A stretch of DNA of 64,000 nt from a virus. The notes under the pieces were generated by a model that was given only the letters and a program-made list of their open reading frames with translations, was not told where the DNA came from and did not search any database. The stretch is taken from the IMG/VR virus record IMGVR_UViG_3300025679_000007, positions 7,285 through 71,284 of that record; one strand, 5' to 3'. How positions within the stretch are numbered: position 1 is the stretch's first letter; each line of letters opens with the position of its first letter. This document shows, piece after piece, positions 20,395 through 54,625 of this stretch. Both the position numbers and the translations under genes were made by a program.

Positions 20395-23300
20395 TCATGC
20401 GCCGGTTCCCACGACCACCGGGAAATACTCCGGCGCCGGAAGGGGCGCGGTGCCGGTGCCGGTCAACGTAATCAACGGAAAATACAGCCCGTCCGCCAAA
20501 CTGGCGGTGTTGACCGCGAGTTGCGCGTTGTTGCCCGAAACGGAAATGGTCCAGCCCGACGAAACGCTGGCGGAGATCGCGGTCATTTGCGCCGTGGCAC
20601 CATCGTAGCCGGCGACAAGGCCGCCGGTGACGTTGGTGCCACTCGCGGACGCCGAAGGTAACGTCATGACCATGCTGTAGGTGCCCGGCGCTGAACTGAT
20701 GGAATCATAACGAAACGGCAGGTTCGTCGGCATACCGCCAGTCAATGGATTGACCAGGGCGATTCCGGCGAATGGAAAATTCGTGATGCTGACGTTTCCC
20801 GCGCCAAGCGGCGGTGCGGACGCGCCGTAAGTTCCCACACTCCACGATCCCGATGCCAGGTTGTAAATATCGTTATCCGTAATCGAATAGCCAAATGGAA
20901 TGTTGCGGATCGGATCGGTATTGCCGGCGACCTGGTTGAAACCGATCGGCGGCTGACCGCTCTCGGCGAGGTTGATAATCGTATTGCTACCGCAAGTGAA
21001 AGAATTGATCGCCCACGCGGGATGCGCGGGGTTGGCACCGGCACACTCATTATACATCTCGATAATGTTACCATTGTTCGCGTTGCCGCCGTTCGTGCCC
21101 TTCATAAAGACGTTGTTTGTGACAACCCATTCGCCACCCTCACAATTCTGGAGGGGTGTATCAAACCCTTCCCAGTTCATTCCTTCGAGGAAGAAGTTAC
21201 TGTCGATGAACGCGTTCATCGCGCGCGCCTTAAATTCGTGGCCAACCGCGTCAACGCTGTAATTGCCGGTCACTTCGATATAGGCCACGCCATCGGCATA
21301 TATATTGTGGCTTGATCCATAGAAATTGCCGCAGGTTGCGAACAGATTGTCATGCAGAAAAATACGGTTTGAGAAATCCCCGTTCATATGGCCCATGTCG
21401 GAGTTATGCGGATAGCAATACTCCAATGTGCAGTTGCCGGATTGTTGATTCTCCCGGTAGAACGCGCCCGCGTTGGAGCCGTTCGTGACGCCATACGCTT
21501 CGATGCGGCGATAGATCGTATCGTATCCTCCGGCGAACGCGAAGCCGCCCTTGCCTTGATTGCCGATCGGCGCCGAGCCAGCGAAGTTGAACGCGATCTG
21601 CTGATGCTGTGTCGTCATGGTGACGGGGCCGATGCTCCGCGTCTGACTGAGCGGATAAGGTCCGATATGCAGGGTCCAGGTCGTGCCGGAACCCGATACG
21701 ATGACCACCCCGGTCCCGGCCCCGGTCGCGATGAAGTCGTTGACGTTGATCGTGCCGGTGACGCCTGACACGGCGAGCGTCGTGCCGCTGATTGTGCCGG
21801 TGAAGGTGGCCTGCGTGCTGCTGTCACCCACGAATGCGACGGGACCGGGCCACCATCCGGCCCGCGTGTAGGATATCGCGTAGTAGCCGGTGGTCGATGG
21901 TGACGGACAGCCCTGAAGCACCGTGACGACCGCGCCGGCATAGGTGGACGGGGAGGCCCACCACGCCGCGCCGAACGTGTTGAAATCAGAGAACGTGCCG
22001 CCCGGCCCGATCGACACGGGCGAGCCGGTGTAGGGATGCCACGAGGTCGTGACGGTAAACTGTTTGACGCAGTAGGTTCCGTTGCCATCGGTCAGGGTCA
22101 GATTGATGGTATCGACCTGCGGTGTCGTTTCGTTGATGGCGCTCAGGTTCCAGGCCGTGACGGTCGCGGAACTTCCGCTGCCCGTGATTGCGTAACGCGG
22201 CGTATACATTGCCCCGCCCGCGTTGAGTCCAACCGTGACCTGGCAGTTGTCCTTCACCACATTGATCGTGGTCAGGGACCAGTTTGGCGTGAGACCAGAA
22301 GTCGATATCGTGGCGACGGTCGTTGGCGAACCGGTGGGAGTTTGCGCCATGGCGGTCGGCAGGAAGTTGGTCAGGCCGCCGACGGTACTCACGCTCACGT
22401 TCGACGATGGCAGCGTGACGCCCGCCGAAACCGGCAGGTTGAAAACGATGGTATTGGTGACGCCGTTGCCGGAAGACACCTGACACGTGCCTGACAGCGC
22501 GCCCGCCGGAACGGAACTCGCCAGATACGCGAAACCGGTGCGTCCGTGAAACGGGTCATAGGAATAGATCGACAGCGCACCACTCGGGCTTGACGTGGTG
22601 GCGAACGCGCCAAAGCCCGTATCGGCGCTCGCGGCCAGGGTGCCGATTTGATTGGAGCCGTAGCCGTTTGTTGGCGGCGTGGAGGAATAGACGCCGCCAT
22701 TCGGCACCCAGGCCAAGGGCGGCGGCGACTCGTGGGCGATGTAGATCGGCACGACCACGGCGGAGCCGCCCGCCGGTGTGATGGTGACATTGTGCTGGCC
22801 GAAGTTCGCCGGGATCAGGCTGGCGAGCGGGATGGTAAGCAGGTCATCGCCGGGGCGCCAGGTGAACAGGCCAGAGGGATCGGAGATCGTCGCCGAGGCC
22901 GCGTTCCAAAGACTCACGTGAATCGCGGCGCCGCCGTAGTAGCTGCTGTAATTCGGTGATGTGGTGCTGCTGCTGTCGGGAATGATATTGGCCGAGGCGA
23001 CGATGGCCGGGGTTCCGGCGGTCAGGTTCGGCACGGTGACGGCCAACGTCTGTGTCGCGCCGATTTGATCGGTCGTGACAACGGTGATCGAGAATGAAGT
23101 CCCGGTGGTGATTTGCGTGTTTGCGTAAAGAACGCCCTGCTGAATGTTGAACAGCGCGGCGTTGCCGCTGCCCGGCACCGTGTCGATGAGCGACCACGTG
23201 ACCGGCCCGGCGCCACCTCGGCAGGCGTAACTGCCGATCGAGAACGATCCGCCGTAGGCGCTCTGGGACAGTGGGACGGTGGTCGGTCCAGTGATACCGG

Positions 23301-23709
23301 CGGCGAAATCGGCCGTGGCGGCCGACACGACGATTCCGGTGGCTGATGCTGATCCGGTATTCGGCCCCGTGCCGGTGACGGTCAGGTTGTAGGTTCCGGC
23401 ACTGGCCGGGTTTGAAGCATAGAACGAAGCCCATGAGCCTGAGACCGCGAACCCACTGATCGTCGCCGCGCCCCCGCCGCCGCTCCACGTCGCCGTGACG
23501 CCGCTCGGCGCCGCGCCGGTCCAGCCGAGCACGATCTGCGAGGACCGCGCCACACCGTTGACGCCGGTCGTGAGCGCCTGCGCCGGGTTGGCCGCGACGG
23601 TCAGGCTGTTGGGGCCAGATGGACTCGCCGCGCCATGCGGCCACCACGCGAACGCATCGCGCGCGGTCAGCAGTGACGCGGCGGAGGCGAGAAGGGCGCG
23701 GCGGAACAT
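20395..23709 (-). CDS. Large fibre/spike-like protein with Ig-like repeats, beta-helix and Tat-like signal
   Basis: MFRRALLASAASLLTARDAFA|WWPHG; SHNIY..GHEFKARA beta-helix segment; S/T/G-rich. Confidence 0.7.
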   Translation of the reverse strand: MFRRALLASAASLLTARDAFAWWPHGAASPSGPNSLTVAANPAQALTTGVNGVARSSQIVLGWTGAAPSGVTATWSGGGGAATISGFAVSGSWASFYASNPASAGTYNLTVTGTGPNTGSASATGIVVSAATADFAAGITGPTTVPLSQSAYGGSFSIGSYACRGGAGPVTWSLIDTVPGSGNAALFNIQQGVLYANTQITTGTSFSITVVTTDQIGATQTLAVTVPNLTAGTPAIVASANIIPDSSSTTSPNYSSYYGGAAIHVSLWNAASATISDPSGLFTWRPGDDLLTIPLASLIPANFGQHNVTITPAGGSAVVVPIYIAHESPPPLAWVPNGGVYSSTPPTNGYGSNQIGTLAASADTGFGAFATTSSPSGALSIYSYDPFHGRTGFAYLASSVPAGALSGTCQVSSGNGVTNTIVFNLPVSAGVTLPSSNVSVSTVGGLTNFLPTAMAQTPTGSPTTVATISTSGLTPNWSLTTINVVKDNCQVTVGLNAGGAMYTPRYAITGSGSSATVTAWNLSAINETTPQVDTINLTLTDGNGTYCVKQFTVTTSWHPYTGSPVSIGPGGTFSDFNTFGAAWWASPSTYAGAVVTVLQGCPSPSTTGYYAISYTRAGWWPGPVAFVGDSSTQATFTGTISGTTLAVSGVTGTINVNDFIATGAGTGVVIVSGSGTTWTLHIGPYPLSQTRSIGPVTMTTQHQQIAFNFAGSAPIGNQGKGGFAFAGGYDTIYRRIEAYGVTNGSNAGAFYRENQQSGNCTLEYCYPHNSDMGHMNGDFSNRIFLHDNLFATCGNFYGSSHNIYADGVAYIEVTGNYSVDAVGHEFKARAMNAFIDSNFFLEGMNWEGFDTPLQNCEGGEWVVTNNVFMKGTNGGNANNGNIIEMYNECAGANPAHPAWAINSFTCGSNTIINLAESGQPPIGFNQVAGNTDPIRNIPFGYSITDNDIYNLASGSWSVGTYGASAPPLGAGNVSITNFPFAGIALVNPLTGGMPTNLPFRYDSISSAPGTYSMVMTLPSASASGTNVTGGLVAGYDGATAQMTAISASVSSGWTISVSGNNAQLAVNTASLADGLYFPLITLTGTGTAPLPAPEYFPVVVGTGA

Positions 23710-23765
23710 CAGGGTCCGGTCCGTTTATGCTGTCCGTCGCGGCACCGCCCTGATACGGTGGCGAG

Positions 23766-24767
23766 ATGCGTCCACGGAACAATTTCAACACCCTGCGGAT
23801 CACGGCCGCGCTCGCGGTGATGGTGTCGCACTCTTTCTCCGTGTCCTACGGAAGAACCGCACACGAACCGCTCAGCCTCGTGAGTCAGGGACAAACGACG
23901 CTTGGCGGCCTCGCGGTCGCCGTGTTCTTCGTCATTAGCGGCTATCTCATTACCGAGAGTTTCGAGCGGTCGCGCGACGCGAAGGTCTTCATGGTCAACC
24001 GTGCGTTGCGGTTGCTGCCTGCCCTGGCCGTCGTTCTGGTGGCGCTGGCGTTCGTCGCCGGACCTGTCCTGACCGAGCGGTCGTTGGCGAATTATTTTAC
24101 CGATCCCCAGGCATACGGCTATGTGCCGGCGAATCTCTCGCTGCTGATGTTCGTGGACACGCTTCCCGGCGTCTTCACGCACAACCCCTTTCCCGAGGCG
24201 GTGGACGGCTCGCTGTGGACTTTGATGTTCGAGGTCCGGTGCTACCTCGCGGTTCTCTGCCTGGGTCTGTGCGGCGCGCTCAATCGGTACGTGTCGCTCG
24301 CTATTCTGCTCGGGTGCTGTGTCGGGTTGAAAATGTGGCTGGGCGGGACGCCGTTGGAACTGTACGCCTGTTTCGCCGCGGGCGCGGTGTGGCACCATTG
24401 GCGACCGCCGCTCCGAGGCTGGATCGCCGCCGCCTGCCTGGCACTGTGCGCATGGGCGTTCCTCTTTGGCGGCTTCCGGGTCGGGATGCCGACCGTCGGC
24501 ACCTATGTGGTGATGTGGCTCGCGCTCGATCCGCGCGTCAGGATGCCGGACCTGGCACGGCATGGCGATCTGTCGTACGGAACCTACATCTGGGCGTTTT
24601 TCGTGCAGCAGTGTTGCGCGGCTTTGTTGGGCGGCGGCTGGGCCGTTAACCTGGTGGTATCCGTCCCGGTCGTGCTCGGGTTGGCTTACATGTCGTGGCA
24701 CTTCATCGAAGCGCCGACGCTTGCATTGAAGGCGCGATTTCGCACGGTCGCTGTCGCTCATTGTTGA
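23766..24767 (+). CDS. Acyltransferase-3 (OafA/Oac-like O-acetyltransferase)
   Basis: LRITAALAVMVSH, FFVISGYLI, RALRLLP, SLWTL.FE, DLSYGTYIW, SWHFIE; multiple TMs. Confidence 0.92.
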   Translation: MRPRNNFNTLRITAALAVMVSHSFSVSYGRTAHEPLSLVSQGQTTLGGLAVAVFFVISGYLITESFERSRDAKVFMVNRALRLLPALAVVLVALAFVAGPVLTERSLANYFTDPQAYGYVPANLSLLMFVDTLPGVFTHNPFPEAVDGSLWTLMFEVRCYLAVLCLGLCGALNRYVSLAILLGCCVGLKMWLGGTPLELYACFAAGAVWHHWRPPLRGWIAAACLALCAWAFLFGGFRVGMPTVGTYVVMWLALDPRVRMPDLARHGDLSYGTYIWAFFVQQCCAALLGGGWAVNLVVSVPVVLGLAYMSWHFIEAPTLALKARFRTVAVAHC

Positions 24768-24771
24768 GTCG

Positions 24772-26523
24772 TCAATGAATGGCATAAATTCTGACCTGAT
24801 AATGATCGCTGTTCGCGCCGAACGTGTCGGAGAATTGCGCCGATCCGTTCAGTGTGAATGTGGCGCCCAGGTTGTTGTGCGCGCTGTCGTATTGTGAATC
24901 GCTGTCATAAACGACGGTCGCCGTCTTGGCCGCCGCGCCAGCGACCGTGAACGTCATGGAAGCACCGGTCGTGCTCCGTCGATCCGACATCGCGAACAGA
25001 TAGGTCGATCCTCCGTAGGAATGGGCGCGCGCGAGACCGGGAACCGACGCGTCGCTGGTTGCCATGGTCAGCACACCGTTCGTGCAACTCGCGGCGGTCG
25101 ATCGATCGGTGTTTTGCATGGAACAGATACCGACCTGCGCCGCGTTAAGTTGGTGCGAATAGGTTCCGATGACGCCGTCGATGTAAGTCAGATTGGCGGC
25201 GACGGCGGTCGCGGCCGAGCCACCCGCCGGATCGCCAAGGCAGAACGTGTAAGAAACGGTATCATGGCAAAACCACTCGATGCCATAAGCGCCGGAGATA
25301 AGGGTCACCCACGCCTCGGCGTTAACTTCCACAGGGGTCGCCCGGTATCTGTTCCCCGCCGCGACGCAGAGATTGGCGCTCGCAACGCAATCGCTGGAGA
25401 AAACACCGCCTGTCACCGTCACGGCCTCTAGTGAACCCGCGCACGTGGCATTGGCACTCATGGTCGCGTGTGTGCTGTCCACGATCCCGGTTATCGTCGT
25501 ATTGGCCGGGATGCACGTCCCGCTTAGCGTCAGCCCTTGCCACGTCGCGGTGAAAGTCGAAACCGGAGCCGTGGCGCTGATATTCTGCTGGTAGTACGCC
25601 GTCTGATTGACGATGACGTTTGAACCGTTGGCGACATCGGCGTGGAAATTATTGCCACGAAAGGCGCCCCCCAAAATGTCTGATCCGGACTCGACATACA
25701 CCCATGCTGGTTTGGTGGGGTTAAACGCGCGAAGCGCCTGCACGCCTACACCGTTGGTCCAGATGCAGTCGTTCGGAGTGCTTAACGAGTCGGATGTCTG
25801 AACGTAAGCGCTTCCGGCGCAGTATTGCCACTGAATGTCCGGATTGGTCACCGGGTACATATCAAAGCTGCCGAATCCCAGAGAACCGATCGCCGCGGTT
25901 GCTTGCGCGTGCGTGACTCCGCTACAGCCGTACGGAACGACCGCATCCCAGACGGGCCAATCCACCTGATTGAACGCCGTAAGCCTTGTCGCGTCGTAAG
26001 CCTGAATATCGGAGACTTCGTTTCCAATGTCGCCTGTCTGATAGGCACCCGTTCCGCACGCTGACTCGTCATTGATGTTATAGCCGATGAAGTTCGCCTG
26101 CGCGCCCGTCGCCGTTAAAAGGGCGAGGATGGATGGAACCGAGGTCGCCGTGGTGCCGCTCGCATAATCGATCGTCTTGCCGCCGATCAGGTACATCGTC
26201 GCCGCCTTGACCGCGGCCATCTCGCCGCCATCCACGCCAAATCCCGACGGCCAGTTCTCTATCCCCAGAAAGGTGTTGACGCCGATCGCCTGTGCCGCCG
26301 CCGCGATATTCGCTTTCCCCGCCGGGACGCCCGTGGTCTGGGCCGGGTCTTCGTCCCAGATCAGGACAGGGAAATACGCGCCGGTCGACGGCGGTCCGTT
26401 GGCGAAGGTCGCGTAGTACGACAATGGAAACGAGAGCACTCCATTGCCGCCGCCGCCATGCAGCCACGCGAACGCCGGCGTGGCGATGATGAGACAAAGG
26501 AGCGCCGCGACTGTTTTCAGCAC
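24772..26523 (-). CDS. Secreted glycoside-hydrolase-like protein
   Basis: GTG start MLKTVAALLCLIIATPAFA|WLHG; GYNINDE, SFDMYP, WVYVE, GAYGIEWF TIM-barrel-like motifs. Confidence 0.6.
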   Translation of the reverse strand: MLKTVAALLCLIIATPAFAWLHGGGGNGVLSFPLSYYATFANGPPSTGAYFPVLIWDEDPAQTTGVPAGKANIAAAAQAIGVNTFLGIENWPSGFGVDGGEMAAVKAATMYLIGGKTIDYASGTTATSVPSILALLTATGAQANFIGYNINDESACGTGAYQTGDIGNEVSDIQAYDATRLTAFNQVDWPVWDAVVPYGCSGVTHAQATAAIGSLGFGSFDMYPVTNPDIQWQYCAGSAYVQTSDSLSTPNDCIWTNGVGVQALRAFNPTKPAWVYVESGSDILGGAFRGNNFHADVANGSNVIVNQTAYYQQNISATAPVSTFTATWQGLTLSGTCIPANTTITGIVDSTHATMSANATCAGSLEAVTVTGGVFSSDCVASANLCVAAGNRYRATPVEVNAEAWVTLISGAYGIEWFCHDTVSYTFCLGDPAGGSAATAVAANLTYIDGVIGTYSHQLNAAQVGICSMQNTDRSTAASCTNGVLTMATSDASVPGLARAHSYGGSTYLFAMSDRRSTTGASMTFTVAGAAAKTATVVYDSDSQYDSAHNNLGATFTLNGSAQFSDTFGANSDHYQVRIYAIH

Positions 26524-27620
26524 GAGGTTCCGGTTCCCCACGCCAGATGCGCGTTGTGGCAGACGCTCGTCTGAGCGGCATTCGACAAGGCGACAGGCTC
26601 GATCGCCCACTCGGTCATCGTGCCCGCGAGATACTCGGCGCCGAGATTGTTGGCGCCGATTGTCACGGTGCCCGACATTCCGGTTGACCCAGCCGCCGCG
26701 CCGGCGATCGGATTGCCAACGTTATCGGTGTTGATAAGGCTGGATGCGCCATTTAAGACGCCCTGGAAGATATGCGTGGCGCCATCGGTTTGCGCGGCGG
26801 TCAAGACCGTTCCGCCGTATTCGATGATTCCGTTCGTGGAGGAGGCAAACGAAAGTTGGGTATTGTTGAGTGAAAAGATGATTTCCTGAGCCGTGGTAAA
26901 GAGGTCCAAACGCGCCGCGACAGCATAAAACGTCATGGGCTGAGTTTGCGTGATCGATGCGGTCTGAAGCGACGCGCCATCCGGAAATAAGACCGTCGGC
27001 AGTCCATTGGTGTCAGATGGCAAGAGTTGCGGCTGTTGGGCGGTCGTTGCCTGCGTCCAATGGTTCCCGTGGCCTGTCTGGTCGTATACCTCGGCCACGT
27101 ACATCGCGACCTGGGCCGTCACGGTTTCGCTGCTAAACGTCTGCGCCTTGTTGACGGTGCAAGTCCCCGGCGGCGTGGCGCATCCGCCGATCACGGTGAT
27201 ATAGGCGGGCTGGACTATTCCCGCTCCCGTGATCGTATCTTGCACATGCGGCGTGCCCGAGGCGCACGTGGAAATCGTCAATGTGGTCGTGCCGGTCATG
27301 GAACCCGTGCATGTCGCGTCTGTGCCGGCGAACGTGTTGGCTGATGCGATGTCAAAGGCACACGCCGATGTCAGTCCTACATCCTGCGTCGCGTTGTCGC
27401 TGGCCCGGCGAACCTTGACCGCCTGTGTCGCGTTGGCCTGCGACGCGCTGAAACACCGAAGTCCGCCATAGCCCGTCGCGGCCTGATTGCCGGACGCCTC
27501 GTAGAGGCCCTGGTAGCCGGTCGGAGCCGCGCCCACCTTCGCGTTGACGATCGACTGAAGCATCTGCGCATGCGCCGATCCGGCGAAGCACAGCGACAGG
27601 ATCAGGGCGAACAGGCGCAT
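26517..27620 (-). CDS. Secreted ConA/LamG-like (arabinofuranosidase-B-like) protein
   Basis: MRLFALILSLCFAGSAHA|Q; VRRASDNATQD, YDQTGHGNH..QP.L motifs. Confidence 0.65.
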   Translation of the reverse strand: MRLFALILSLCFAGSAHAQMLQSIVNAKVGAAPTGYQGLYEASGNQAATGYGGLRCFSASQANATQAVKVRRASDNATQDVGLTSACAFDIASANTFAGTDATCTGSMTGTTTLTISTCASGTPHVQDTITGAGIVQPAYITVIGGCATPPGTCTVNKAQTFSSETVTAQVAMYVAEVYDQTGHGNHWTQATTAQQPQLLPSDTNGLPTVLFPDGASLQTASITQTQPMTFYAVAARLDLFTTAQEIIFSLNNTQLSFASSTNGIIEYGGTVLTAAQTDGATHIFQGVLNGASSLINTDNVGNPIAGAAAGSTGMSGTVTIGANNLGAEYLAGTMTEWAIEPVALSNAAQTSVCHNAHLAWGTGTSC

Positions 27621-27621
27621 C

Positions 27622-29574
27622 TTAGTTCGCCGTCCAGGTGCCACCGGAACTGGCGGTATTGTAGTGCGTCGCGTCCTTCCCGAGCAGGCAGATACTATCG
27701 CCCGCCGCGCCGCCGGAGACGAACGTGCCGGTCCCTGCCGTTCCATAAGCGGACTGATCGGTCTTGCCGTATCGCGCGGATGAACCGATCGCGGCCAAGG
27801 TAATGACCGTCGAAACACCCACGTCGTTCTTGACGCAAAATTCGTCGCCGGCCGCCGGGACCGGAAGCGTGATCGTGCAAGTCCCGGTGCAAAGATAATA
27901 CGACCGTGGCGCCGCCAGGGTGGCGCTGGTTCCGGGCGCCTGGAGGGGCGATGCGGCAACGGAGGCGTTCGCGAGCGGCGTCGTCAGGGCGAGGGACGCG
28001 GCGCTGAGTGCTTCGGTGGTCGAGATTGTCGTCCCATTGTCCGTCAGACCAGATGCCGTCATGGCGCCGGAGCCATCAAGAAACTTCCCGATCGCGCCGC
28101 TTGTGATCGTGCCAAAGCCTGGGAACCCGAAGCCGCTCAGCACGCCCGATGACGACCATGCGTAGCCGTAAAAGCCATAGGGATGCAGCGTTGTGGCGAG
28201 CGGCAAACCGGCGATGGTCTGGCTGTTCGGCGCGATCGTGAGGGTGGCGCCGGCCTGCGCCGTCACCATTAGAGTTTGACCGCTCGCCAGGGTCGCCAGG
28301 GTCGCGGTCGCGGTGGTGCTCCAATCATCCTCGCCGCCAGGATTCGCCGTGGTCGCGGAATTGCCGTGGACAGTATCGACGGCGGTGAAATCGCAGACGC
28401 CGGAGGGACACGCCATCGTCGTGCCTGGCTCTATGATGCCGAACTGGCCCGAAGCGGCCTTCTGCACGACCGGCGCCGCGTCGGAGCGCATCGCCGTGGA
28501 CGCCGTGCCATTGACCGCCGTTGGCCCCGCCGTCGCGGTGGGATTGGCGAAGGTCGTTGAACCACCCACGGAACTGATGACGCCGGCGCTGATCGTGATG
28601 GTGGTACCGTCCGGCTTCACCGCACCCGCCGCGCCGGTTGTGGCCAGAGGGAGTAGCGAGGCCGTGACCAGGCCGCTGCTTGTCGTCTCGACGAGCGTGC
28701 TGTTGCCGGTCAGACCGTAGGGCACGCTGGTTGGGCTGCTGGTGCCGTTGCTCACAACGACCTGACCCGTAGTTGGCCACGTGACCGAGCCGCCCGATCC
28801 GTTCGCCGCCACCGTGACGCGGCCCTTCGCGTCCACCGTGACGTTCGCGCTCGTGAACGATCCGACGTTGCTGTTGACCGCCGCCAGGACCGCCGCCTGT
28901 GAGCCGGATCCCGGTCCCGCCGTCACGTCGCCGGTCAGGGTGGTGATGCCGGAGCCGCCGCCGCTACACGCTCCCGTAGTCCATATCCCCCCGGCTCCAA
29001 GCGCGCACTGCCCGTCAACCTCGGCCAGTCCCGTCGCGGCGCCCGTGCCGTGCCCGATCAGCAGCCCGGTCAGTGTCGCCGCGCCCGTCCCGCCCTGCGC
29101 CACGGACAGCGGCGTGGTGAGGCCGGACAGGGAGGTGATGTCTGTATTTGACCCGGCAAGCGCTATCGTTCTCCCGTTGGAGGCCGGAAGGAACAACGTG
29201 ACGCTTCCGAGTGCGCCAACGACTGGTTCCACCGTAAGCAGCCCACTCGTGGCGTTGCCCATGACGACGGAACCAAGTGTGCCGGACGCGCCAAGGGTCA
29301 GGACACCAAGGATGACATTCGCGTCCGCCGCTGGAGCGCACGCGCCGCTAACGCCATAAAGAACAATGTTGGTGGCCTGGCCACCGGCTGGCACGCAACC
29401 TATACCTCCGCCGCTGCTTATGGCCGCCGCGAGTGACTTGATTGTTCCGCCGATGTTTATTTGTATCTGGCTTGCCGGCACATTATGGTATGTATTGTTT
29501 GTTTTGACGACTGTTTCCTGGGCGTGCGCGACGCCAAATAAAAGGGACAGCGCCACCGCCAATCGAATCAGCAT
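27622..29574 (-). CDS. Tail-fibre-like protein with signal peptide
   Basis: MLIRLAVALSLLFGVAHA|Q; LSVAQGGTGA, VTVDAKGRVT, GAVKPDGTTITI fibre motifs. Confidence 0.75.
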   Translation of the reverse strand: MLIRLAVALSLLFGVAHAQETVVKTNNTYHNVPASQIQINIGGTIKSLAAAISSGGGIGCVPAGGQATNIVLYGVSGACAPAADANVILGVLTLGASGTLGSVVMGNATSGLLTVEPVVGALGSVTLFLPASNGRTIALAGSNTDITSLSGLTTPLSVAQGGTGAATLTGLLIGHGTGAATGLAEVDGQCALGAGGIWTTGACSGGGSGITTLTGDVTAGPGSGSQAAVLAAVNSNVGSFTSANVTVDAKGRVTVAANGSGGSVTWPTTGQVVVSNGTSSPTSVPYGLTGNSTLVETTSSGLVTASLLPLATTGAAGAVKPDGTTITISAGVISSVGGSTTFANPTATAGPTAVNGTASTAMRSDAAPVVQKAASGQFGIIEPGTTMACPSGVCDFTAVDTVHGNSATTANPGGEDDWSTTATATLATLASGQTLMVTAQAGATLTIAPNSQTIAGLPLATTLHPYGFYGYAWSSSGVLSGFGFPGFGTITSGAIGKFLDGSGAMTASGLTDNGTTISTTEALSAASLALTTPLANASVAASPLQAPGTSATLAAPRSYYLCTGTCTITLPVPAAGDEFCVKNDVGVSTVITLAAIGSSARYGKTDQSAYGTAGTGTFVSGGAAGDSICLLGKDATHYNTASSGGTWTAN

Positions 29575-40437: not shown

Positions 40438-40440
40438 GGC

Positions 40441-41058: not shown

Positions 41059-41059
41059 G

Positions 41060-46132: not shown

Positions 46133-46136
46133 GGCG

Positions 46137-47314: not shown

Positions 47315-47922
47315 CAGCCGCGCCTCATGTCGGCGATCATCGTGGCGCCTTCAGCATCCCGATCAGCGGTCTGAACCGGATTCTGCTCCTGGGCGAATTG
47401 CCGCTCAAATTCCACGGCCAACGCCTCTATCAAGGCATCGAGAAAGCCAGCGTCATTCCATGCCGCGGGGTTCGTGACGCGGCCGGTAATGGTGGCCTGG
47501 GCGTTCAGCAGGTTGGTCAACACCACCAAAGACCCTGACGCCGTATCGCTCCCGACCACGAAGATGTTCGGAAACACGTTGCGCTCCGGAAGCGCCACCG
47601 GCGTCGGCCGGACCGATCGAACCATGATGCAGGACATTGGATAGGCATACTCATACCCCCAGGGGAGCGGTGGATTGTTCACGGCGCTCCATGGCGTCGA
47701 GCCATACCCTCCGGCCGGCGCCGTCTTCAGCGCAGCGCCCAGGCTTACCGTCTGCCTGGCGAAACCCCAGTCCCGCTCGCGCAACACCGCGTCTCTGATC
47801 TGGCCGTAATAGTCGAGCGCGATCCGGGAGGCCCGCGACCCTTCGTAAATGGAACCGATCGGGGTTGGATACTTCACGCGGCGAAGCGCGGCGTTCAGAA
47901 TGTCTTCGACCGCCAGCACCAT
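47314..47922 (-). CDS. Tail tubular A/adaptor paralogue 2
   Basis: DILNAAL..WGFARQ..YAYPMSC; ATG at 47922. Confidence 0.8.
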   Translation of the reverse strand: MVLAVEDILNAALRRVKYPTPIGSIYEGSRASRIALDYYGQIRDAVLRERDWGFARQTVSLGAALKTAPAGGYGSTPWSAVNNPPLPWGYEYAYPMSCIMVRSVRPTPVALPERNVFPNIFVVGSDTASGSLVVLTNLLNAQATITGRVTNPAAWNDAGFLDALIEALAVEFERQFAQEQNPVQTADRDAEGATMIADMRRG

Positions 47923-47936
47923 GACGACGCGACCCC

Positions 47937-48554
47937 TTAGTTGTGCAGTGTGTCGCTGGTGATCACGAGGGTGCCGCCGATGGCGTTCACGGTGCCGGCG
48001 TTCCACTCGACCGAAAGCTCACCGCTTCCCGGCGCGACCGTCACCCCAGAGGAAAATGTCGCGACCGGACCACCCTGCCAGTCGGCCATGAGCGTGCCGC
48101 TGTTGACCTGAATGCCAGCACCGTGCGCGATGACGGCGCCCGCGTTCCACTGCGCCTGCAACGTGTCACTGTTGATCGCCAGGCCGGTGTTCACCGCCAC
48201 CACAAGGCCACCCTGCCAGTATGCCTCCAGCGTGCCGCCGGCCAGAAGCGTCAGGCCGGCCCCGATGCTGGAAATGATCGCGCCGGATGCCTGAAGCGAT
48301 CCGCCCGCATTGAACGAAAGACCACCCGCCAAGGGAATGGTCGTGGCGACAGCGGCGACGGTTCCTGGATTGCCAAGCAATGTCGCCGCGAGTTGTGACT
48401 TCGCGGTAAGCGTGCCGCCAAGCTTAACGGGACCCTCGACAAAAAACGGGTTCGGACCAACAACGATCAAAGCGCCGAGTTGTGGCGCCCCGCGCGGGAT
48501 GCGGAGCGCTTCATTTCCCGGTTGTGGATAGACCGGTAATTTGCCGGTCGGCAT
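47937..48554 (-). CDS. Short fibre protein with about 22-aa repeats
   Basis: Repeated G(L/I)..(S/G)GTL.A.W(Q/N)(G/A)G.V units. Confidence 0.65.
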   Translation of the reverse strand: MPTGKLPVYPQPGNEALRIPRGAPQLGALIVVGPNPFFVEGPVKLGGTLTAKSQLAATLLGNPGTVAAVATTIPLAGGLSFNAGGSLQASGAIISSIGAGLTLLAGGTLEAYWQGGLVVAVNTGLAINSDTLQAQWNAGAVIAHGAGIQVNSGTLMADWQGGPVATFSSGVTVAPGSGELSVEWNAGTVNAIGGTLVITSDTLHN

Positions 48555-49384
48555 CAGCTATCGCGATCCGGAGCATCCGCGCTGATTTTCCCGGACGTAT
48601 CCAGCATTTCCCTTCCGAGATCGGGCCGCCCCGCAACGGGAATGGTTACCATCGAACCAATGAACCGAACCGCCATCTCCGTGAAAATGCTGTCCCAGTC
48701 ATACTCCGTGATGAGGGATGTGGAATAGATCAGCGAAGCGCCCACCACATCCGCCCAGATCACTTGCTGGGTGGTGAACACGACTTCGGTTATGTCGATA
48801 AAAAATCCGGTGCCGATCCCTGGTTGCGTCCCACCCGTCGCCGTGGCGGTGATCGCCGGCCCATATCCAGACCCATTCGATGTCAGCGTGTAGGTGCCCA
48901 CCGCCCCGGCACTCAACACGGTGTCGATGACGTAAGTCGCGACCGCGCCAGTGCCACCAAGAATCGTGCCGGTGTCGCCCACCCCGTAGCCGGTGCCGTT
49001 GTAGCCGACAAATGAACCCGCTATGATCCCGGTCACGGTTACGTCACCGACATCCCACCGCACCGGCTGCGGATCGTTCTGATCCCACGTCGCCGGGGCG
49101 ATCTGGCGAACCCGTATGCAGTCGTCCGGGTAAGCGTATTCGTAGGCCCATTGGAGCGGCGGTGTGTTCCCGGTCTGGATCATGGGAATGCTTCTGCGGC
49201 AAAACTCGAAATCCTGATTGCGCAAAAGCATCTGGACCGCGCCAACATACAAAGTGGCGCAGTAGATTCCTGCGGCGGACCCATCGAAGTTGGTTGCCAC
49301 GGTTCCGCTGGCGAGGGGTGGCCCCTGCGCGATTTGCGTGAGCGCCCGATTAACAACTTCGAGAGCGGTCAGGCCGAATGGCAT
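48554..49384 (-). CDS. Tail tubular A/adaptor paralogue 1 with Gly/Thr-rich insert
   Basis: EVVNRAL..FEFCRR..YAYPDDC..WDSIF. Confidence 0.8.
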   Translation of the reverse strand: MPFGLTALEVVNRALTQIAQGPPLASGTVATNFDGSAAGIYCATLYVGAVQMLLRNQDFEFCRRSIPMIQTGNTPPLQWAYEYAYPDDCIRVRQIAPATWDQNDPQPVRWDVGDVTVTGIIAGSFVGYNGTGYGVGDTGTILGGTGAVATYVIDTVLSAGAVGTYTLTSNGSGYGPAITATATGGTQPGIGTGFFIDITEVVFTTQQVIWADVVGASLIYSTSLITEYDWDSIFTEMAVRFIGSMVTIPVAGRPDLGREMLDTSGKISADAPDRDS

Positions 49385-49390
49385 TTGAGG

Positions 49391-49804
49391 TTACTGGACC
49401 TTGCCGGACTTCGCGTTTGGATCGATGTCATCGATGACTTCCATGAGAAGCCAACCGCTAAACCCGGCCTTCCCCATCAGCCGCTCGATGACGCCCAGTT
49501 CAGTGCCATCGACCACCGCCGCCGGATCGTCGCGGAGTTTCTTCGCGAGCACGGCGCGGTCATATCTCTGCTGCCATCCAAGCGATTTTTCATCCTCATA
49601 GGTCCCGTTCAACGCGATGGCCACGGCACCACCCACCGTGAGGGGCGGGCATTTCGAGCAATCCTTGCTATCCGCCGCCATGGCGGTCGGGTCTGGCACC
49701 ACCGCGCCCTGTGGATTGGTGATGATTTTCGTCATGTCGGCCGGATGACTTTGTGCCAAGGCGATGCTCGGAAGAAGCAATAAGGCAAGCAGCACGCGTT
49801 TCAT
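49391..49804 (-). CDS. Secreted protein (fibre-chaperone position)
   Basis: MKRVLLALLLLPSIALA|Q; DCSKC; ATGA overlap. Confidence 0.7.
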   Translation of the reverse strand: MKRVLLALLLLPSIALAQSHPADMTKIITNPQGAVVPDPTAMAADSKDCSKCPPLTVGGAVAIALNGTYEDEKSLGWQQRYDRAVLAKKLRDDPAAVVDGTELGVIERLMGKAGFSGWLLMEVIDDIDPNAKSGKVQ

Positions 49805-51126
49805 GGGCAAACCTTTACCGTTTCTGAGTCGTCCCACAGCGTTCCGGTCGGTTGACTGGAACAAGAGGTCACGAGCGCGGCCGCCTGGACCGAGCCGGAC
49901 AACCGAATGACGCCGGTGCCTTTGGGTAGGAGTGTCATGCCGATATTCGGATCGGATGGGCCGCCGGTTTCCAGTGTCGGGTCGGTTCCCGAGGGCTGCG
50001 CTTGCATGATGAAGGTGTTCTGCGTCCCGCTCGTCAGCCCCTGCACCCGAAAGGTTGGATTTCCGCCGGCATCAAGAAACTGAACGTCGCCGCCCGGTCC
50101 GGTGGATGCCCGGATGGAGTCTGTGTGCACCGTATTGTTGCCATCGACCCGAAATCCGCTCGGTCCCTTCAGGAAGGCGTCCGAGAAGGTGGCCGCCGAG
50201 AAGTCGATGCCATCGGCGGCGGTGCCTGAATTCGAGAGGATCAAAGTGCCGCCGACGGAAACAGGCAGACCAGTGTTCGGGGGAAGCGCGCCAAAGAAGA
50301 TGCCGGCGTTGTTCCAGGTCCAGCCGGCGGGGCGGATGTTCAACGCGGTCTCGAACACCGAGGCATGAGAGGCGCTGAGATCGACGATCGACATACCCTC
50401 GCCCCACTTGAAGTTGGCGCCGGGGGATGTCTCCACATCCATCTCGAACCCGTCGATTTCGTTCCAGTAGATCGGCTGGCCGTGATTGTCGTTGGCGGAC
50501 AGGCGCATGAATCCAGCGTAGGCGAACGCGTCGCCCTGCGCCGCGCTGGGCGTGCCACCGGCATTCGCCGCGATGGTCAAACCGACCGAGAGGGCCCCCT
50601 CAAACAGATTGGTGGTTCCCCCGATGGCATCGGTCATGATGGTATCGATGAACATGCCATTGTGTGATCCGGTGGCCGACCCGCCGCCGTAATGATCGAT
50701 CAAAGTCAACCCGTTCACGCCCCCAACGCTCGTGCCGGTCATGCTCTCATTGACCTGGATCAGGTTCAGCGGAATTTCACACCCTGCGCTGTCGTTATAG
50801 CAGCCGGTGGAAAGGCCGGAGTATTGCTGGGTCAGGTAAATCCCGACGTTGTTCGTTCCAGGGTAACCGCCGGCCCATGCGACATTGGTTGATTGAACCA
50901 AGGTCGCCGTCATGTTGAGGTTTGTCACGGTCTGACCTGGGCTGAACGGCAACAGCGTTTTGATGAAGGCCAGGGAAATCCCGGAATCGCCCACATAGCC
51001 GTTGCGCAACCATTGCGGCACATTGCCAGGCGCGACCGGCCCGACCTGAAGCACGCTTTGAGCGAACGCCACCGGCGTTAAAAAAGAAAAAGCCGCCCCG
51101 AAGGCGGCTCCTAAGAAAAAACGCAC
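49801..51126 (-). CDS. Secreted fibre/spike-like protein
   Basis: MRFFLGAAFGAAFSFLTPVAFA|Q; C-terminal L.PKGTG and CSSQPTGTLW..VKVCP. Confidence 0.7.
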   Translation of the reverse strand: MRFFLGAAFGAAFSFLTPVAFAQSVLQVGPVAPGNVPQWLRNGYVGDSGISLAFIKTLLPFSPGQTVTNLNMTATLVQSTNVAWAGGYPGTNNVGIYLTQQYSGLSTGCYNDSAGCEIPLNLIQVNESMTGTSVGGVNGLTLIDHYGGGSATGSHNGMFIDTIMTDAIGGTTNLFEGALSVGLTIAANAGGTPSAAQGDAFAYAGFMRLSANDNHGQPIYWNEIDGFEMDVETSPGANFKWGEGMSIVDLSASHASVFETALNIRPAGWTWNNAGIFFGALPPNTGLPVSVGGTLILSNSGTAADGIDFSAATFSDAFLKGPSGFRVDGNNTVHTDSIRASTGPGGDVQFLDAGGNPTFRVQGLTSGTQNTFIMQAQPSGTDPTLETGGPSDPNIGMTLLPKGTGVIRLSGSVQAAALVTSCSSQPTGTLWDDSETVKVCP

Positions 51127-51140
51127 GGTGCTGATCCTTT

Positions 51141-51542: not shown

Positions 51543-51568
51543 GGCTGCTTCCTTTATGGGAGAGAAAT

Positions 51569-52048: not shown

Positions 52049-52057
52049 TGTGAACTC

Positions 52058-52590: not shown

Positions 52591-52605
52591 GCGGCGCGCT
52601 CCTTA

Positions 52606-52869: not shown

Positions 52870-52891
52870 GGAATGATTCTCCGGTGTAACG

Positions 52892-53239
52892 TCAGGCGTG
52901 CAGCGCCTTCATCTCTTCTTCATGCTTGAGGTGCATGTCGCGGTGATCCTTGCGGTGCTCGCCGTGCATATCCATCCGCTCTTTCTCGTGACGGACGTGC
53001 ATCGCCTCCCGCTCGGCCCGACGCCCGCCTTCTTCGGCGCGGCTCTCCCGGCGTCTGGGTTCGTCCCGGCGCGTCTCTCGACGCTCTTCCCTGGGTTCTT
53101 CACGCCGCTCTTCGCGCTTTTCTTCGTGGCGCTCTTCCCGCCTGGGCTCTTCGCCGCGATGCCGGGCAGAACTGTCGCTGTCGTACATCGCGCGAGCGCG
53201 CTCCTTGCGCTCGTCTTTTCGTTCCGGTTCACGCGCCAT
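52892..53239 (-). CDS. Arg/Glu/His-rich protein
   Basis: Extremely charged; AMYD motif; overlaps the previous stop. Confidence 0.65.
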   Translation of the reverse strand: MAREPERKDERKERARAMYDSDSSARHRGEEPRREERHEEKREERREEPREERRETRRDEPRRRESRAEEGGRRAEREAMHVRHEKERMDMHGEHRKDHRDMHLKHEEEMKALHA

Positions 53240-53564: not shown

Positions 53565-53613
53565 CGGCGGACTCCTGCTGGCGAGGTCTTGCGCGGTCAG
53601 TCTGGACACCCGA

Positions 53614-54090
53614 TCAGATCAGGTCCCACGTCCCGGTCGGCTGATTGAAAATGTAGCAATAGGTCGTGTTCGCGGTCATGGCGGTGGCGACGTTGGTGAT
53701 GGTCTGGCCACTCCCGGCCGCCACCTGGATCGTCACGGCGGTCTGGGTCTGCGTCGAACGCATGCAGTTCCGTTGGCCATTGCCTGGATTGGGCGCGAGC
53801 GTGAACGTTCCCGTGGCGAGCGTGCCGACCGGCGCGATCAAATACCAACTCTGCCCATTGGCAAACGCCAGCGAAAACGCCGTGAGCGGCACGGCCTTCA
53901 CATAACCCTGCGGCCCGCTGATCTGGGCGGCGGTGGCGAACGTGCTGGCGGCGGAAGGCGCCCCGCCAACAAAATCCTGGAACAGATCGGTCGCACCAAC
54001 CGATGTGACCTGCGGCAACGTGGGTGCCTGCGCCCATGCGCCACCGATACCGGCGAGCGCCAGGACGGCGCCCAACAATAGTTTTTTCAT
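53614..54090 (-). CDS. Secreted beta-rich protein (head-decoration region)
   Basis: MKKLLLGAVLALAGIGGAWA|Q; GGAG SD; Cys pair. Confidence 0.75.
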   Translation of the reverse strand: MKKLLLGAVLALAGIGGAWAQAPTLPQVTSVGATDLFQDFVGGAPSAASTFATAAQISGPQGYVKAVPLTAFSLAFANGQSWYLIAPVGTLATGTFTLAPNPGNGQRNCMRSTQTQTAVTIQVAAGSGQTITNVATAMTANTTYCYIFNQPTGTWDLI

Positions 54091-54106
54091 CGTTTTTCTC
54101 CGGTGA

Positions 54107-54625
54107 TCAGTAAAGCGGCAAGCAGTAAACGCGCACGTTCGCGGTCGCGGCGGCGCCCTGCGGCGTTGTGAGCGACAGATACAAGGTCGTTACCTTGCTG
54201 GTCTGGGTCGGCCCCTGAAAGCGCGTAGTCGTTCCCGCCGCCGCGAGCGTGGCCAACATGGCGCCTCCGGTCGTGTTGACCGCGCCGGTGGTCAGGGGCG
54301 AGTACGCCTGGGTATTCGCCACGATGGCGATCCCACCCTTCGAGGCGGCGCTGTAGAAGCCGCCCGCCGCCGTGGTCAGAGACACACTCGGATCGCTGAC
54401 CACGATGGAGTCGACCATGTATGTCGCGGTCGGGACCGCGATGGCTATGGCCTGGTCAGAAGTGGAATTGAAATTGGCACCCTTCAGCCAGCCGCACTCG
54501 ATCCGGCCCGGCGCATAGGCCTGCCAGGGCGTGTTGGGGAACTGGAACTGGGTGGATTGGGCGTGCAGCGGCGACGCGGCGATAAGAGCCAGTGCGGCGG
54601 AGGCGGTCGCGAGAAGGATTTTCAT
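54107..54625 (-). CDS. Secreted beta-rich protein (head-decoration region)
   Basis: MKILLATASAALALIAASPLHA|Q; GGAG SD; Cys pair. Confidence 0.75.
   Translation of the reverse strand: MKILLATASAALALIAASPLHAQSTQFQFPNTPWQAYAPGRIECGWLKGANFNSTSDQAIAIAVPTATYMVDSIVVSDPSVSLTTAAGGFYSAASKGGIAIVANTQAYSPLTTGAVNTTGGAMLATLAAAGTTTRFQGPTQTSKVTTLYLSLTTPQGAAATANVRVYCLPLY

Follow-up and report, generated by a model that had tools for sequence, protein, structure and literature searches.

Every fibre-like, spike-like or sugar-cutting protein that we recognised among the late genes of an uncultivated, epsilon15-like podovirus of ~70 kb carries a secretion signal. Judged by sequence, the leaders are genuine, conserved Sec or Tat export signals, and the export and periplasmic maturation of the proteins that bear them are well supported. 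The window, the 64,000-nt stretch of IMG/VR record IMGVR_UViG_3300025679_000007 (positions 7,285–71,284) that was analysed, covers most of the genome of this relative of Salmonella phage epsilon15, and includes an integrase and a head, tail and ejection module of the epsilon15 type. Tailed-phage particles assemble in the cytoplasm. With their secretion signals, the fibre-, spike- and glycanase-like proteins almost certainly mature outside the compartment of particle assembly. We lean slightly towards the view that they attach to virions at lysis, over the plausible alternative that they are free exported glycan binders or depolymerases.

The first-pass annotation had proposed that eight late genes begin with signal peptides. 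All eight do so at the coordinates given below, with leaders of n-h-c layout ending in AxA/Q or AxA/W (slashes mark predicted cleavage sites). Seven of these leaders are of the Sec type with AxA sites; that of an 1104-aa protein is of the Tat type. Leaders were called with our own rule-based detector, in strict and lenient versions, and by reading the N-termini. Among 35 late ORFs, the strict version was positive for 10, including six of the eight named genes, and the lenient version for 11, including all eight. The additional lenient positives were 59435–59695 (convincing), 29600–29956 (weak) and 55803–56357, the last of which we judged to be a false positive because its homologues at other loci have non-hydrophobic N-termini. 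The convincing one, on the minus strand between the portal and scaffold genes, is a ninth small leader-bearing ORF that the first reading had not listed; it encodes 86 aa from an internal Met (..ALSAVPAMA/QS), contains no Cys and has no homologue in the related loci. As had been claimed for the capsid, portal, adaptors and nozzle, the detector was negative for these proteins, including all five adaptor paralogues, and also for the terminase, the scaffold and the giant protein. In crude gene calls of the record, positives made up 9/37 late genes versus 3/45 other genes.

The expectation that homologues keep the leaders was borne out in three family sets. A leader was found in 11/11 aligned members of one family (family b), in all of the best 120 of 606 proteins (~430 aa each) from a profile search with that family, and in 144/150 proteins of a second family (family c), where three of the six misses show a leader after a miscalled start. 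It is extremely unlikely that these hydrophobic N-termini are something other than export signals, such as chance features, wrongly called starts or virion-binding hydrophobic plugs. The calls do come from a rule-based detector and reading rather than a dedicated predictor, and a terminator-like hairpin (51088–51112, minus strand; an 11-pair stem then a T-run) falls within the leader codons of the gene at 49801–51126, in a place equivalent to that of the annotated terminators at the head/tail boundary of epsilon15. However, hundreds of homologues retain the n-h-c architecture and the AxA site despite drift in the leader sequence; the Sec and Tat types separate, with cysteine statistics to match; and the ORFs have no room upstream for an added domain. 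In a control with the 51 annotated CDS of epsilon15 (score of at least 3.3), moreover, only the two spanins were flagged.

The mature part has an even Cys count in seven of the eight leader proteins of the window, the exception being the Tat-type 1104-aa protein, with 11. Even counts were likewise found in 119/120 family-b and 126/144 family-c proteins, whereas the leaderless late (virion) proteins that contain Cys divide into six even and nine odd. Only the Sec-type proteins show this signature, which is absent from the Tat-type family and from virion proteins without leaders. The close Cys pairs described in the first-pass annotation are present at C389/C394 and C562/C566 of a 650-aa protein, C147/C154 of a 367-aa protein, C109/C116 of a 441-aa protein and C49/C52 of a 137-aa protein. 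Based on these paired cysteines, the Sec-type proteins are almost certainly made to fold under the oxidising conditions of the periplasm.

The leader-bearing genes belong to the late operon, in which the ejection-protein genes flank them on one side and the lysis genes, downstream of them, on the other. They share the minus strand with the structural genes, have tight or overlapping junctions and resemble the remainder of the operon in GC. Shine-Dalgarno-like motifs precede most of their starts. A role as morons or in lysogenic conversion, in which the prophage would express them, outside the lytic programme, to give the lysogen surface or secreted proteins, is therefore improbable. Against such a role, promoter-like sites are not enriched (4 versus 2.9 expected; 2 versus 3.5 expected), the protein bodies are fibre or spike modules, and the same slots hold leader-bearing genes in relatives whose nozzles share only 47–62% identity. 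Consistent with it, the phage is temperate, as the integrase at 8405–9505 indicates; the record takes up foreign DNA, given its IS1595 transposase; and a divergent 56-bp gap precedes the 1104-aa gene. Moreover, an O-acetyltransferase gene, for O-antigen or polysaccharide (23766–24767, plus strand; Pfam Acyl_transf_3, E 1.3e-22; phrog_3333 O-acetyltransferase, E 3.1e-30), sits between two leader-bearing minus-strand genes. The serotype-conversion genes of epsilon15 have the same position and orientation. A minus-strand ORF overlying the O-acetyltransferase gene (23709–24785) was rejected as spurious. Downstream of the exported-protein genes, the lysis region includes a lipoprotein gene with a LAAC lipobox (17555–18061, minus strand; Pfam LPAM_1, E 0.0026), which we mention for context only.

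Behind the leaders lie phage receptor-binding modules, among them fibre repeats, a tail-fibre tip of tandem jelly-roll fold, and bodies of the tailspike and beta-helix kinds. This homology to phage fibre and tailspike modules supports that part of the first-pass interpretation. The 650-aa fibre-like protein (27622–29574, minus strand; Sec leader ..LFGVAHA/QE; 10 mature Cys) is encoded in the tail-fibre region of the operon, two genes on from that of the giant internal protein, with the 118-aa ORF at 29600–29956 in between. Its residues 138–202 match PDB 7z47_D, 'Putative tail fiber' (E 4.4e-4), and residues ~207–269 match fibre-like ORFs of 10 other viral contigs, none of which has a leader (0/10). 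Similar post-giant proteins in relatives G001 (568 aa) and G002 (781 aa) are both leader-bearing. The 367-aa protein (26517–27620, minus strand; Sec leader ..CFAGSAHA/QM; 8 mature Cys), whose gene start overlaps the stop region of the gene upstream, is weakly similar to a virion structural protein family (phrog_10356 'virion structural protein', E 2.1e-5; phrog_21413, E 1.1e-5).

Two enzyme-like proteins are encoded at 20395–26523. The leader of the 1104-aa protein (20395–23709, minus strand; N-terminus MFRRALLASAASLLTARDAFA/WW, MFRRALL..ARDAFA/WWPHG) had been described as twin-Arg-like; an RR-x-hydrophobic leader is indeed kept in 10/12 homologues, and a (W/R)xP(H/R)G motif follows the RR leaders in 10/12. 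The body probably comprises Ig-like repeats and a right-handed beta-helix, as in tailspikes or depolymerases (ESM Atlas leads He_PIG and Beta_helix, with scores of only 0.82–0.86), and we consider it nearly certain that this protein is exported already folded via Tat. One homologue, P0279, is 49% identical over residues 26–1098 and has, in place of the leader, a leaderless N-terminus of 127 aa with tail-fibre PHROG matches. The 583-aa protein (24772–26523, minus strand; N-terminus ..LLCLIIATPAFA/WLHG, Sec leader ..ATPAFA/WLHGGGG; 12 mature Cys) had no weighty sequence match in Pfam, PHROG or PDB. It is possibly a TIM-barrel glycoside hydrolase, a lead from ESM Atlas structure rows of GH42/GH5-like clusters (TM 0.83 by row, 0.57–0.58 by query) and feature scores of 0.83–0.86, which are leads only.

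Above all for these two proteins, a secreted, non-virion role is a serious rival. According to this reading, which we regard as a real possibility, copies of receptor-binding modules were turned into free periplasmic or released proteins that never bind the virion. Lectin-like members would mask the receptor glycan and glycanases would trim it, keeping progeny off debris, excluding superinfecting phages or opening the matrix at release. Host binding by the virion itself would fall to its nozzle, to its adaptors or to a protein not yet recognised; relatives G002–G004 have enlarged nozzles of 1332–1359 aa. In ESM Atlas leads, which are no more than leads, the 583- and 1104-aa proteins resemble ordinary secreted bacterial glycanases of the glycoside hydrolase and beta-helix kinds. 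An example exists: PMC7949094 describes WceF, a bacterial, Tat-exported, trimeric tailspike-like glycanase. The conversion-type O-acetyltransferase gene among the leader-bearing genes also fits free proteins, which moreover face no topological problem.

The 441-aa protein (49801–51126, minus strand; Sec leader ..FLTPVAFA/QSVLQVGP; 4 mature Cys) is a positional counterpart and a partial member of family c, a large leader-bearing fibre/spike family. A family-c HMM built without it matched, with filters off only, no more than the leader and ~28 residues of the mature part (E 1.8e-5 among 35 proteins; 15.4 bits). That this protein has only ~30 residues in common with family c counts against virion attachment. 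No full-length homologue was found among 5.8 billion proteins, and the AF2 model was unusable (pLDDT 47.9). Overlapping the stop of this gene, in a chaperone position, is that of the 137-aa protein (49391–49804, minus strand; N-terminus MKRVLLALLLLPSIALA/QS, Sec leader ..PSIALA/QS), which has a CxxC pair, no Pfam or PHROG match and no BLAST homologue in five relatives. Directly downstream of this pair and upstream of the nozzle, the block at 45215–49384 (minus strand) encodes five leaderless adaptor paralogues of the tail tubular protein A type (45215–46132, 46137–46742, 46742–47314, 47314–47925 and 48554–49384), all linked by pairwise BLAST, and a 205-aa ORF (47937–48554). The three paralogues scanned matched phrog_394 'tail protein' (E 6e-30, 3e-22 and 9e-20).

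In family c, a 130-residue N-domain is conserved across 684 cluster representatives, whereas the C-termini (Peptidase_S74, pectate-lyase-like and tail spike/fibre PHROG domains) are freely swapped. This is the classic architecture of virion-anchored receptor-binding proteins and speaks against free proteins. So does the fixed placement of the family beside leaderless adaptor paralogues: it invariably sits immediately upstream of two extra paralogues, and occurs in 14/14 assessable loci of relatives that have these versus 0/11 with a single adaptor. Several loci are near-duplicates (L032/L054, L044/L048/L050, L041/L042, L043/L051, L015/L016 and L017/L018/L049/L052), so the co-occurrence represents few independent events and may reflect one clade.

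The decoration position proposed for the two small proteins at 53614–54625 is not established. The 158-aa protein (53614–54090, minus strand; Sec leader ..GIGGAWA/QA) is the short representative of family b, whose mature N-terminus carries a conserved PQVxSxGxTDLFQ motif. In the suggested structure comparison, the model of a long member (pLDDT 88.7) is a tandem jelly-roll whose matches include tail fibre proteins from named phages (TM 0.5–0.68, E 1e-13 to 4e-29); the long relatives fold as tail-fibre tips do, unlike capsid decoration proteins. The 172-aa protein (54107–54625, minus strand; Sec leader ..AASPLHA/QSTQFQFP; 2 mature Cys) has homologues in L012 and L015, both leader-bearing, that keep the motif QFQFxxTPWQAYAPG.

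Phage genes often have dual starts, and each gene could yield an exported full-length protein and a leaderless form from an internal start, the latter alone joining the virion in the cytoplasm. The family-c representative P0101 begins precisely at the conserved LQ motif, as such a form would. Nevertheless, we consider this very unlikely. No conserved internal start was found across 25 genes: in the interval from −4 to +12 codons around the cleavage site, 1/25 has an in-frame start codon (ATG, GTG or TTG) accompanied by a Shine-Dalgarno-like motif, and 10/25 have no in-frame codon of these kinds. Further, the even-Cys signature argues that the oxidised fold is the functional one.

No leaderless, fibre-sized candidate was found in the window or in G002 (terminal repeats, 100% complete), G003 and G004, which are complete or near-complete relatives. 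If the exported proteins were free, this phage and these three relatives would be left without a recognisable particle fibre or spike. Together with the placement and co-occurrence of family c and the extra adaptors, this is indirect evidence that the exported proteins end up on virions. In the 1104-aa family, and in family b compared with ordinary tail fibres, a leader has taken the place of the conventional anchoring segment, which could equally well mean release from the virion. The literature that we searched offered no precedent, nor a phage assembly scheme that allows for exported fibres.

Under attachment at lysis, the fibre-like 441-, 650- and 158-aa proteins, and probably those of 367 and 172 aa, would wait in the periplasm, where the small exported partner encoded at 49391–49804 may assist their folding. 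They would meet DNA-filled, tail-bearing particles only when lysis breaches the inner membrane, and would dock via the new N-termini cut by signal peptidase, probably onto the extra adaptor paralogues. The 583- and 1104-aa proteins may dock likewise or remain free soluble glycanases. Our tentative interpretation, to which we give a little less than even weight, is that in this phage an export signal has replaced the leaderless, virion-anchoring N-terminus of receptor-binding proteins, and that the fibres would join the virions at lysis.

The source record is 71,284 bp long and rated 100% complete. Its late operon runs on the minus strand from the large terminase gene (61867-63339) down to ~16277 and carries all of the tested hallmarks of an epsilon15-like podovirus structural module. 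These comprise, in order, a portal protein (Head-tail_con, PF12236; E 1e-112) and a scaffold, then a GP7/epsilon15-type capsid protein (PF20911; E 3.6e-88), five tail adaptor paralogues of the tail tubular A type (45215-49384, minus; phrog_394), a 1010-residue nozzle of the tail tubular B type (phrog_376; E 5.7e-146) and internal virion proteins (phrog_308, phrog_418), among them a 2603-residue giant. Early genes and a tyrosine integrase occupy the plus strand at 1-9505, and an IS1595-family transposase (DDE_Tnp_IS1595 plus zinc ribbon; 14141-15127, minus) lies in the stretch separating the integrase from the lysis region. Past 20395 in the direction of the operon come genes for small membrane proteins, a transglycosylase-like protein and a lipoprotein, presumably a lysis cassette.

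The gene order is that of epsilon15 and phiV10 (Uetakevirus): terminase, portal, scaffold/protease, GP7-type capsid, adaptor, nozzle and internal/ejection proteins, followed by a fibre region, an antisense surface-conversion gene, lysis genes and integrase. Sequence identity is 40% between the capsid proteins of the window and phiV10 and ~33% between the nozzles of the window and epsilon15. Where epsilon15 has antisense surface-conversion genes between the tailspike and lysis genes, the window has a plus-strand O-acetyltransferase (Acyl_transf_3; 23766-24767), which late transcripts must cross to reach the lysis genes and the gene of a 1104-residue protein (20395-23709). A long minus-strand ORF opposite the acetyltransferase was rejected as spurious. 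Epsilon15 has a 39.7-kb genome, a single adaptor and a leaderless tailspike, gp20. By contrast, the window has five tandem adaptors (relatives have one or three), the 2603-residue ejection protein and a leader, or signal peptide, on every fibre- or spike-like protein. Two further features of the record were noted: a 115-residue protein made almost wholly of Arg/Glu/Lys/Asp runs (52892-53239), kept in eight related loci, and ORFs in several frames at bases 293-1990 of the record, upstream of the window, that give short tandem peptide repeats and thus mark repetitive DNA near its left end.

Leaders were called using our own rule-based detector and by reading the sequences. Translation reproduced exactly the eight leader N-termini listed in the first-pass annotation. 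At the strict setting, the detector was positive for six of the eight genes and for 10 of the 35 late ORFs overall; at the lenient setting, for all eight and for 11 of 35. The core virion proteins, said in that annotation to be leaderless, were negative, and among 51 annotated CDS of epsilon15, used as a control, only the two spanins reached a score of at least 3.3. According to the detector and reading combined, seven of the eight proteins have Sec-type leaders, here taken as a positively charged n-region followed by an uncharged hydrophobic h-region of ~8-15 residues, with small side chains at positions -3 and -1 and ~15-35 residues in all. These are the proteins of 583 (24772-26523), 367 (26517-27620), 650 (27622-29574), 137 (49391-49804), 441 (49801-51126), 158 (53614-54090) and 172 residues (54107-54625). 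The eighth, the 1104-residue protein, has the marks of a Tat leader, taken as an RR-x-hydrophobic-hydrophobic motif, low hydrophobicity of the h-region and a basic c-region residue: it starts M-F-RR-A-L-L, its h-region is rich in Ala and Ser, and an Arg occurs in ..TARDAFA. The gene at 59435-59695 has a convincing ninth leader. A 118-residue ORF (29600-29956) scored only weakly, and 55803-56357 was discounted because its homologues lack a hydrophobic N-terminus. The leaderless, tail-anchoring N-terminal domain usual in fibres was absent, all named proteins beginning with a leader, and none of their ORFs can be extended upstream so as to add an N-terminal domain.

Two features of the leader regions were observed in passing. 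The mature 1104- and 583-residue proteins would both start W-x-(P)-H-G despite their Tat versus Sec leaders and unrelated bodies, and this start may be a docking or sorting tag. The signal-peptide codons of the 441-residue protein (GAAFGAA..FSFL) encode a strong, terminator-like hairpin and T-run (51088-51112, minus) at the boundary of the head and tail modules, where epsilon15 has annotated terminators; one sequence may have a dual use here.

Leaders are kept in homologues, a check that the first-pass annotation had proposed, in two large families and in the homologues of the 172- and 1104-residue proteins; the conservation counts leave out the 583-, 367- and 137-residue proteins. In family b, the homologues of the 158-residue protein, all 11 aligned members from related contigs keep an n-h-c leader of drifting sequence, and the motif PQVxSxGxTDLFQ directly after the cleavage site is conserved. 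A profile search returned 606 proteins, and the best 120 of the 606, nearly all ~430 residues long, were leader-positive without exception. Family c, a leader-bearing fibre/spike family, is encoded immediately upstream of the adaptors in relatives. A profile of its mature N-terminal domain found 684 cluster representatives among 1.84 billion (355 at E <=1e-30), ranging from 184 to 1599 residues. In the best 150 of the 684, the start of the domain falls almost always at residue 17-46. A leader was called in 144; the six without one comprise three with a leader after a miscalled start, two ambiguous cases and one protein that begins within the domain. Both homologues of the 172-residue protein bear leaders. 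Judged by eye, 10 of 12 homologues of the 1104-residue protein have an RR-x-hydrophobic leader followed by (W/R)xP(H/R)G, one is ambiguous and one is leaderless. That the hydrophobic N-termini are not signals is scarcely credible: the leader is kept as a feature while its sequence drifts, and the cysteine parity of the mature proteins is as expected for export.

The closely spaced cysteine pairs reported in the first-pass annotation are present. The mature Sec-type proteins of the window contain 2, 2, 2, 4, 8, 10 and 12 Cys, and the Tat-type 1104-residue protein 11. Leaderless late proteins having Cys divide into six with even and nine with odd counts, and the ejected proteins have none. Even mature counts occur in 119 of 120 family-b and 126 of 144 family-c proteins. 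In the Tat family, 8 of 13 whole-protein counts are odd; there is no bias and hence no disulfide signature. This pattern is the expected outcome of disulfide formation after Sec export and of cytoplasmic folding before Tat export, and the even counts lend indirect support to the export and cleavage of the Sec-type proteins. As to individual proteins, those lacking Cys at 30080-41058 are the 2603-residue giant, an 848-residue transglycosylase-like protein and a 205-residue protein; the nozzle has 13 Cys and the portal 10.

Near the cleavage site, only one of 25 genes has an in-frame start accompanied by a Shine-Dalgarno-like motif. A leaderless isoform is therefore unlikely, and we regard the proposal that these genes yield both exported and leaderless isoforms as very improbable. 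Together, conservation of the leader as a feature, cysteine parity and the lack of a likely leaderless isoform argue, at the level of sequence, that the leaders are real signal peptides. These lines strongly support the export half of the interpretation offered in the first-pass annotation, and it is close to established that the leader-bearing proteins are made late, exported and matured in the envelope.

Fibre or spike homology of the mature bodies was found for the 650-residue protein, long family-b members, family-c C-termini and the 1104-residue protein. It was weak or absent for the 583-, 137- and 172-residue proteins and over the last 390 residues of the 441-residue protein. The 650-residue protein has a fibre repeat in common with ORFs of 10 unrelated viral contigs, none of these ORFs having a leader, and matched a solved 'Putative tail fiber' (7z47_D) at E 4.4e-4; its counterparts after the giant gene in two relatives, G001 and G002, bear leaders. 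Structure prediction followed by Foldseek, as had been suggested, was run on a long family-b member and matched it to phage tail fibre proteins. The model (pLDDT 88.7, pTM 0.83) consists of two jelly-roll sandwiches that resemble carbohydrate-binding modules in the PDB. Against predicted viral structures (BFVD), it gave 251 matches at E <=1e-3, which include tail fibre proteins of many phages; uncultured-phage entries reach the best value, E 4e-29. Conventional fibres with tandem jelly-roll tips annotated in Burkholderia phage BcepNazgul, Xanthomonas phage FoX4, Synechococcus phage S-H34 and Agrobacterium phage Atu_ph04 matched at E 1e-13 to 1e-18 with TM 0.5-0.6. Family b opens with a signal peptide and a ~40-residue motif in all of its best 120 members. 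The window's own 158-residue member is a short form, of which only the leader, the motif and a small part of the C-terminal region are shared.

Family-c proteins have a conserved 130-residue N-domain after the leader, for which no PDB sequence match was found, and variable C-termini: Peptidase_S74 in 3 of 66, pectate-lyase-like domains in 5 of 66 and many PHROG domains of tail spikes, tail fibres and virion proteins. The 441-residue protein is a partial member. It matched a family-c profile built without it over no more than the leader and ~28 mature residues (15.4 bits, filters off), and the only confident parts of its otherwise unusable AF2 model (66 homologues; pLDDT 47.9) are the leader helix and one hairpin. 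No related locus was found for it in viral contigs, and a protein homologue search returned only itself. Over its whole length, the 1104-residue body has 49% identity to a homologue, P0279, in which a leaderless N-terminus of 127 residues, with hits to tail-fibre PHROGs, takes the place of the 25-residue leader and motif. ESM Atlas suggested Ig repeats and a β-helix for the 1104-residue protein and a TIM-barrel glycosidase for the 583-residue protein, leads only because the scores were <0.9.

Other searches gave little. Pfam returned no matches for ten proteins, and PHROGs gave two weak families for the 367-residue protein and one for the 118-residue ORF. PDB sequence searches with the 1104-, 583- and 367-residue proteins and family b found nothing of weight. 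In tblastn against 50,697 phage records, no match was obtained for the 441-, 158-, 650- and 367-residue proteins or the family-c N-domain, although the low-complexity filter may hide some. A link between the 137-residue CxxC protein and a 'DCSxCP' ORF of G001 had no BLAST support and was dropped.

Lambda lom and bor and T5 llp are signal-peptide-bearing accessory genes in late operons, so exported proteins can sit among tail genes. To our knowledge, Lom, Bor and Llp are neither fibre homologues nor products of conserved core-slot genes, unlike the leader proteins of the window. Were the latter encoded by morons or lysogenic-conversion genes, each gene should have a promoter and a terminator of its own, an unusual composition and an uneven distribution among relatives. 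Instead, their junctions are tight or overlapping on the operon strand, their GC content is like that of their neighbours, promoter-like sites are not above shuffled expectation and the slots are conserved among relatives; we consider a moron origin unlikely. The exception that does fit this class is the plus-strand acetyltransferase. Outside the late operon, in the accessory region, a 102-residue ORF with a clean Sec leader (11716-12024, minus) is a more typical moron candidate.

A search with the nozzle identified 42 related viral loci, mostly at 47-62% identity and many on 60-70 kb contigs, and five whole relatives were retrieved and mapped. G002 (100% complete, with terminal repeats) encodes four leader-bearing proteins, of 338, 135, 475 and 668 residues, between the capsid and adaptor genes, and a leader-bearing 781-residue fibre after the giant gene. 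In two other relatives, G003 and G004, the giant gene is followed by no fibre gene. No leaderless fibre-sized candidate was found in the window or in these three relatives. Among loci having enough upstream sequence, family c occurs in 14 of 14 with two extra adaptor paralogues, always immediately upstream of these, and in 0 of 11 with the nozzle-proximal adaptor only. This apparent co-occurrence is a lead only, since several of the loci nearly duplicate one another and a single clade may account for the pattern. In a low-GC branch with one adaptor, leader genes are absent between the capsid and adaptor genes. A scaling of adaptor copy number with leader-gene number holds only roughly, the loci L040 and L045 each having one adaptor yet leader genes. 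Within the window, the adaptor paralogues at 46137-46742 and 47314-47925 are 52% identical. Complex prediction for three adaptor paralogues of the locus L032 with the family-c N-domain, run without controls, scored 0.00 and was counted neither for nor against binding.

These data can be accommodated by a two-compartment model, to which we give a little less than an even chance, in which exported fibres dock on particles at lysis. The fibres would wait in the periplasm, meet the particles when the inner membrane is breached and dock, probably on the extra adaptor paralogues, via the N-termini that signal peptidase exposes. We favour this model because the particle would otherwise lack a fibre, because family c combines a conserved N-domain with a swapped C-terminus, the design of anchored receptor-binding proteins, and because family c is locked to leaderless tail genes. 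That finished particles can take up spikes outside the cell is shown by P22 tailspikes added in vitro to tail-less heads; in vivo, P22 makes and attaches its tailspike in the cytoplasm.

The main rival to docking holds that these modules have left the virion and act as soluble lectins and glycanases. The exchange of an anchor for a leader in two families fits this proposal as well as it fits docking, and a bacterial parallel exists: WceF of Pantoea stewartii is described as a Tat-exported, trimeric β-helix, a tailspike-like exopolysaccharide hydrolase (PMC7949094). Like the 1104-residue protein, as read from its sequence, WceF joins a Tat leader to a large tailspike-like body, which in WceF acts on a surface glycan, and it is the best functional analogue of that protein. 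However, WceF is encoded chromosomally in an exopolysaccharide cluster and the 1104-residue protein in a phage late operon, and no sequence relation between them was found. We regard free modules as a serious possibility, somewhat less likely than docking; a mixed outcome, in which fibres dock and enzymes stay free, is quite possible.

The signal-peptide endolysin Lys44 of phage fOg44, SAR endolysins and spanins are late proteins exported by the host Sec system that stay in place until the holin acts (PMC6116005). Like the leader proteins of the window, they are made late and cross the inner membrane ahead of lysis, and they show that phages do pre-position late proteins in the envelope. They differ in that they disrupt wall or membrane, are not homologues of receptor-binding proteins and have not been proposed as virion parts.

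Host scans with the nozzle across genome contigs matched a single MAG contig, and the family-c profile matched twice in 401 genomes of one phylum. We infer a diderm host from the lipoprotein, the O-antigen acetylase and a family-c member in Rhizobium. That member, annotated in Rhizobium sp. BK313 (WP_183868618.1), provides a cultivable entry point.

Tailed-phage morphogenesis is taught as entirely cytoplasmic. In the literature searched (titles and abstracts, without subscription journals or supplements), no description of signal peptides on tailed-phage tail fibres or spikes was found, a provisional result. As far as their available parts go, PMC13001222, PMC5723332 and PMC9658697 treat signal peptides only as annotation methods or counts, and the exported late phage proteins already described are signal or SAR endolysins and spanins (PMC6116005).

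With the present analysis, the leader observation reaches beyond a single window to include two large protein families and one phage lineage. These families, with 684 and 606 representatives, couple bona fide fibre/spike modules to export signals, and receptor-binding proteins with export leaders could represent a new assembly route. In its fullest form, which we advance tentatively and at less than even probability, a widespread, uncultivated lineage of 60-70 kb podoviruses would complete its virions outside the cytoplasm: Sec/Tat-secreted, periplasm-disulfide-bonded fibres would snap onto fibre-less particles at the extra adaptors only at the moment when the holin joins the compartments. Whether docked or free, the proteins are natural disulfide-stabilized glycan binders and depolymerases, and would be missed by annotation and host-range pipelines that read a signal peptide as a non-structural mark. 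If they are virion parts, assembly has a lysis-gated periplasmic branch, and DsbA, Tat and signal peptidase become determinants of infectivity. If they are free, phages routinely place soluble copies of receptor-binding modules in the envelope, an unrecognized exit or exclusion strategy.
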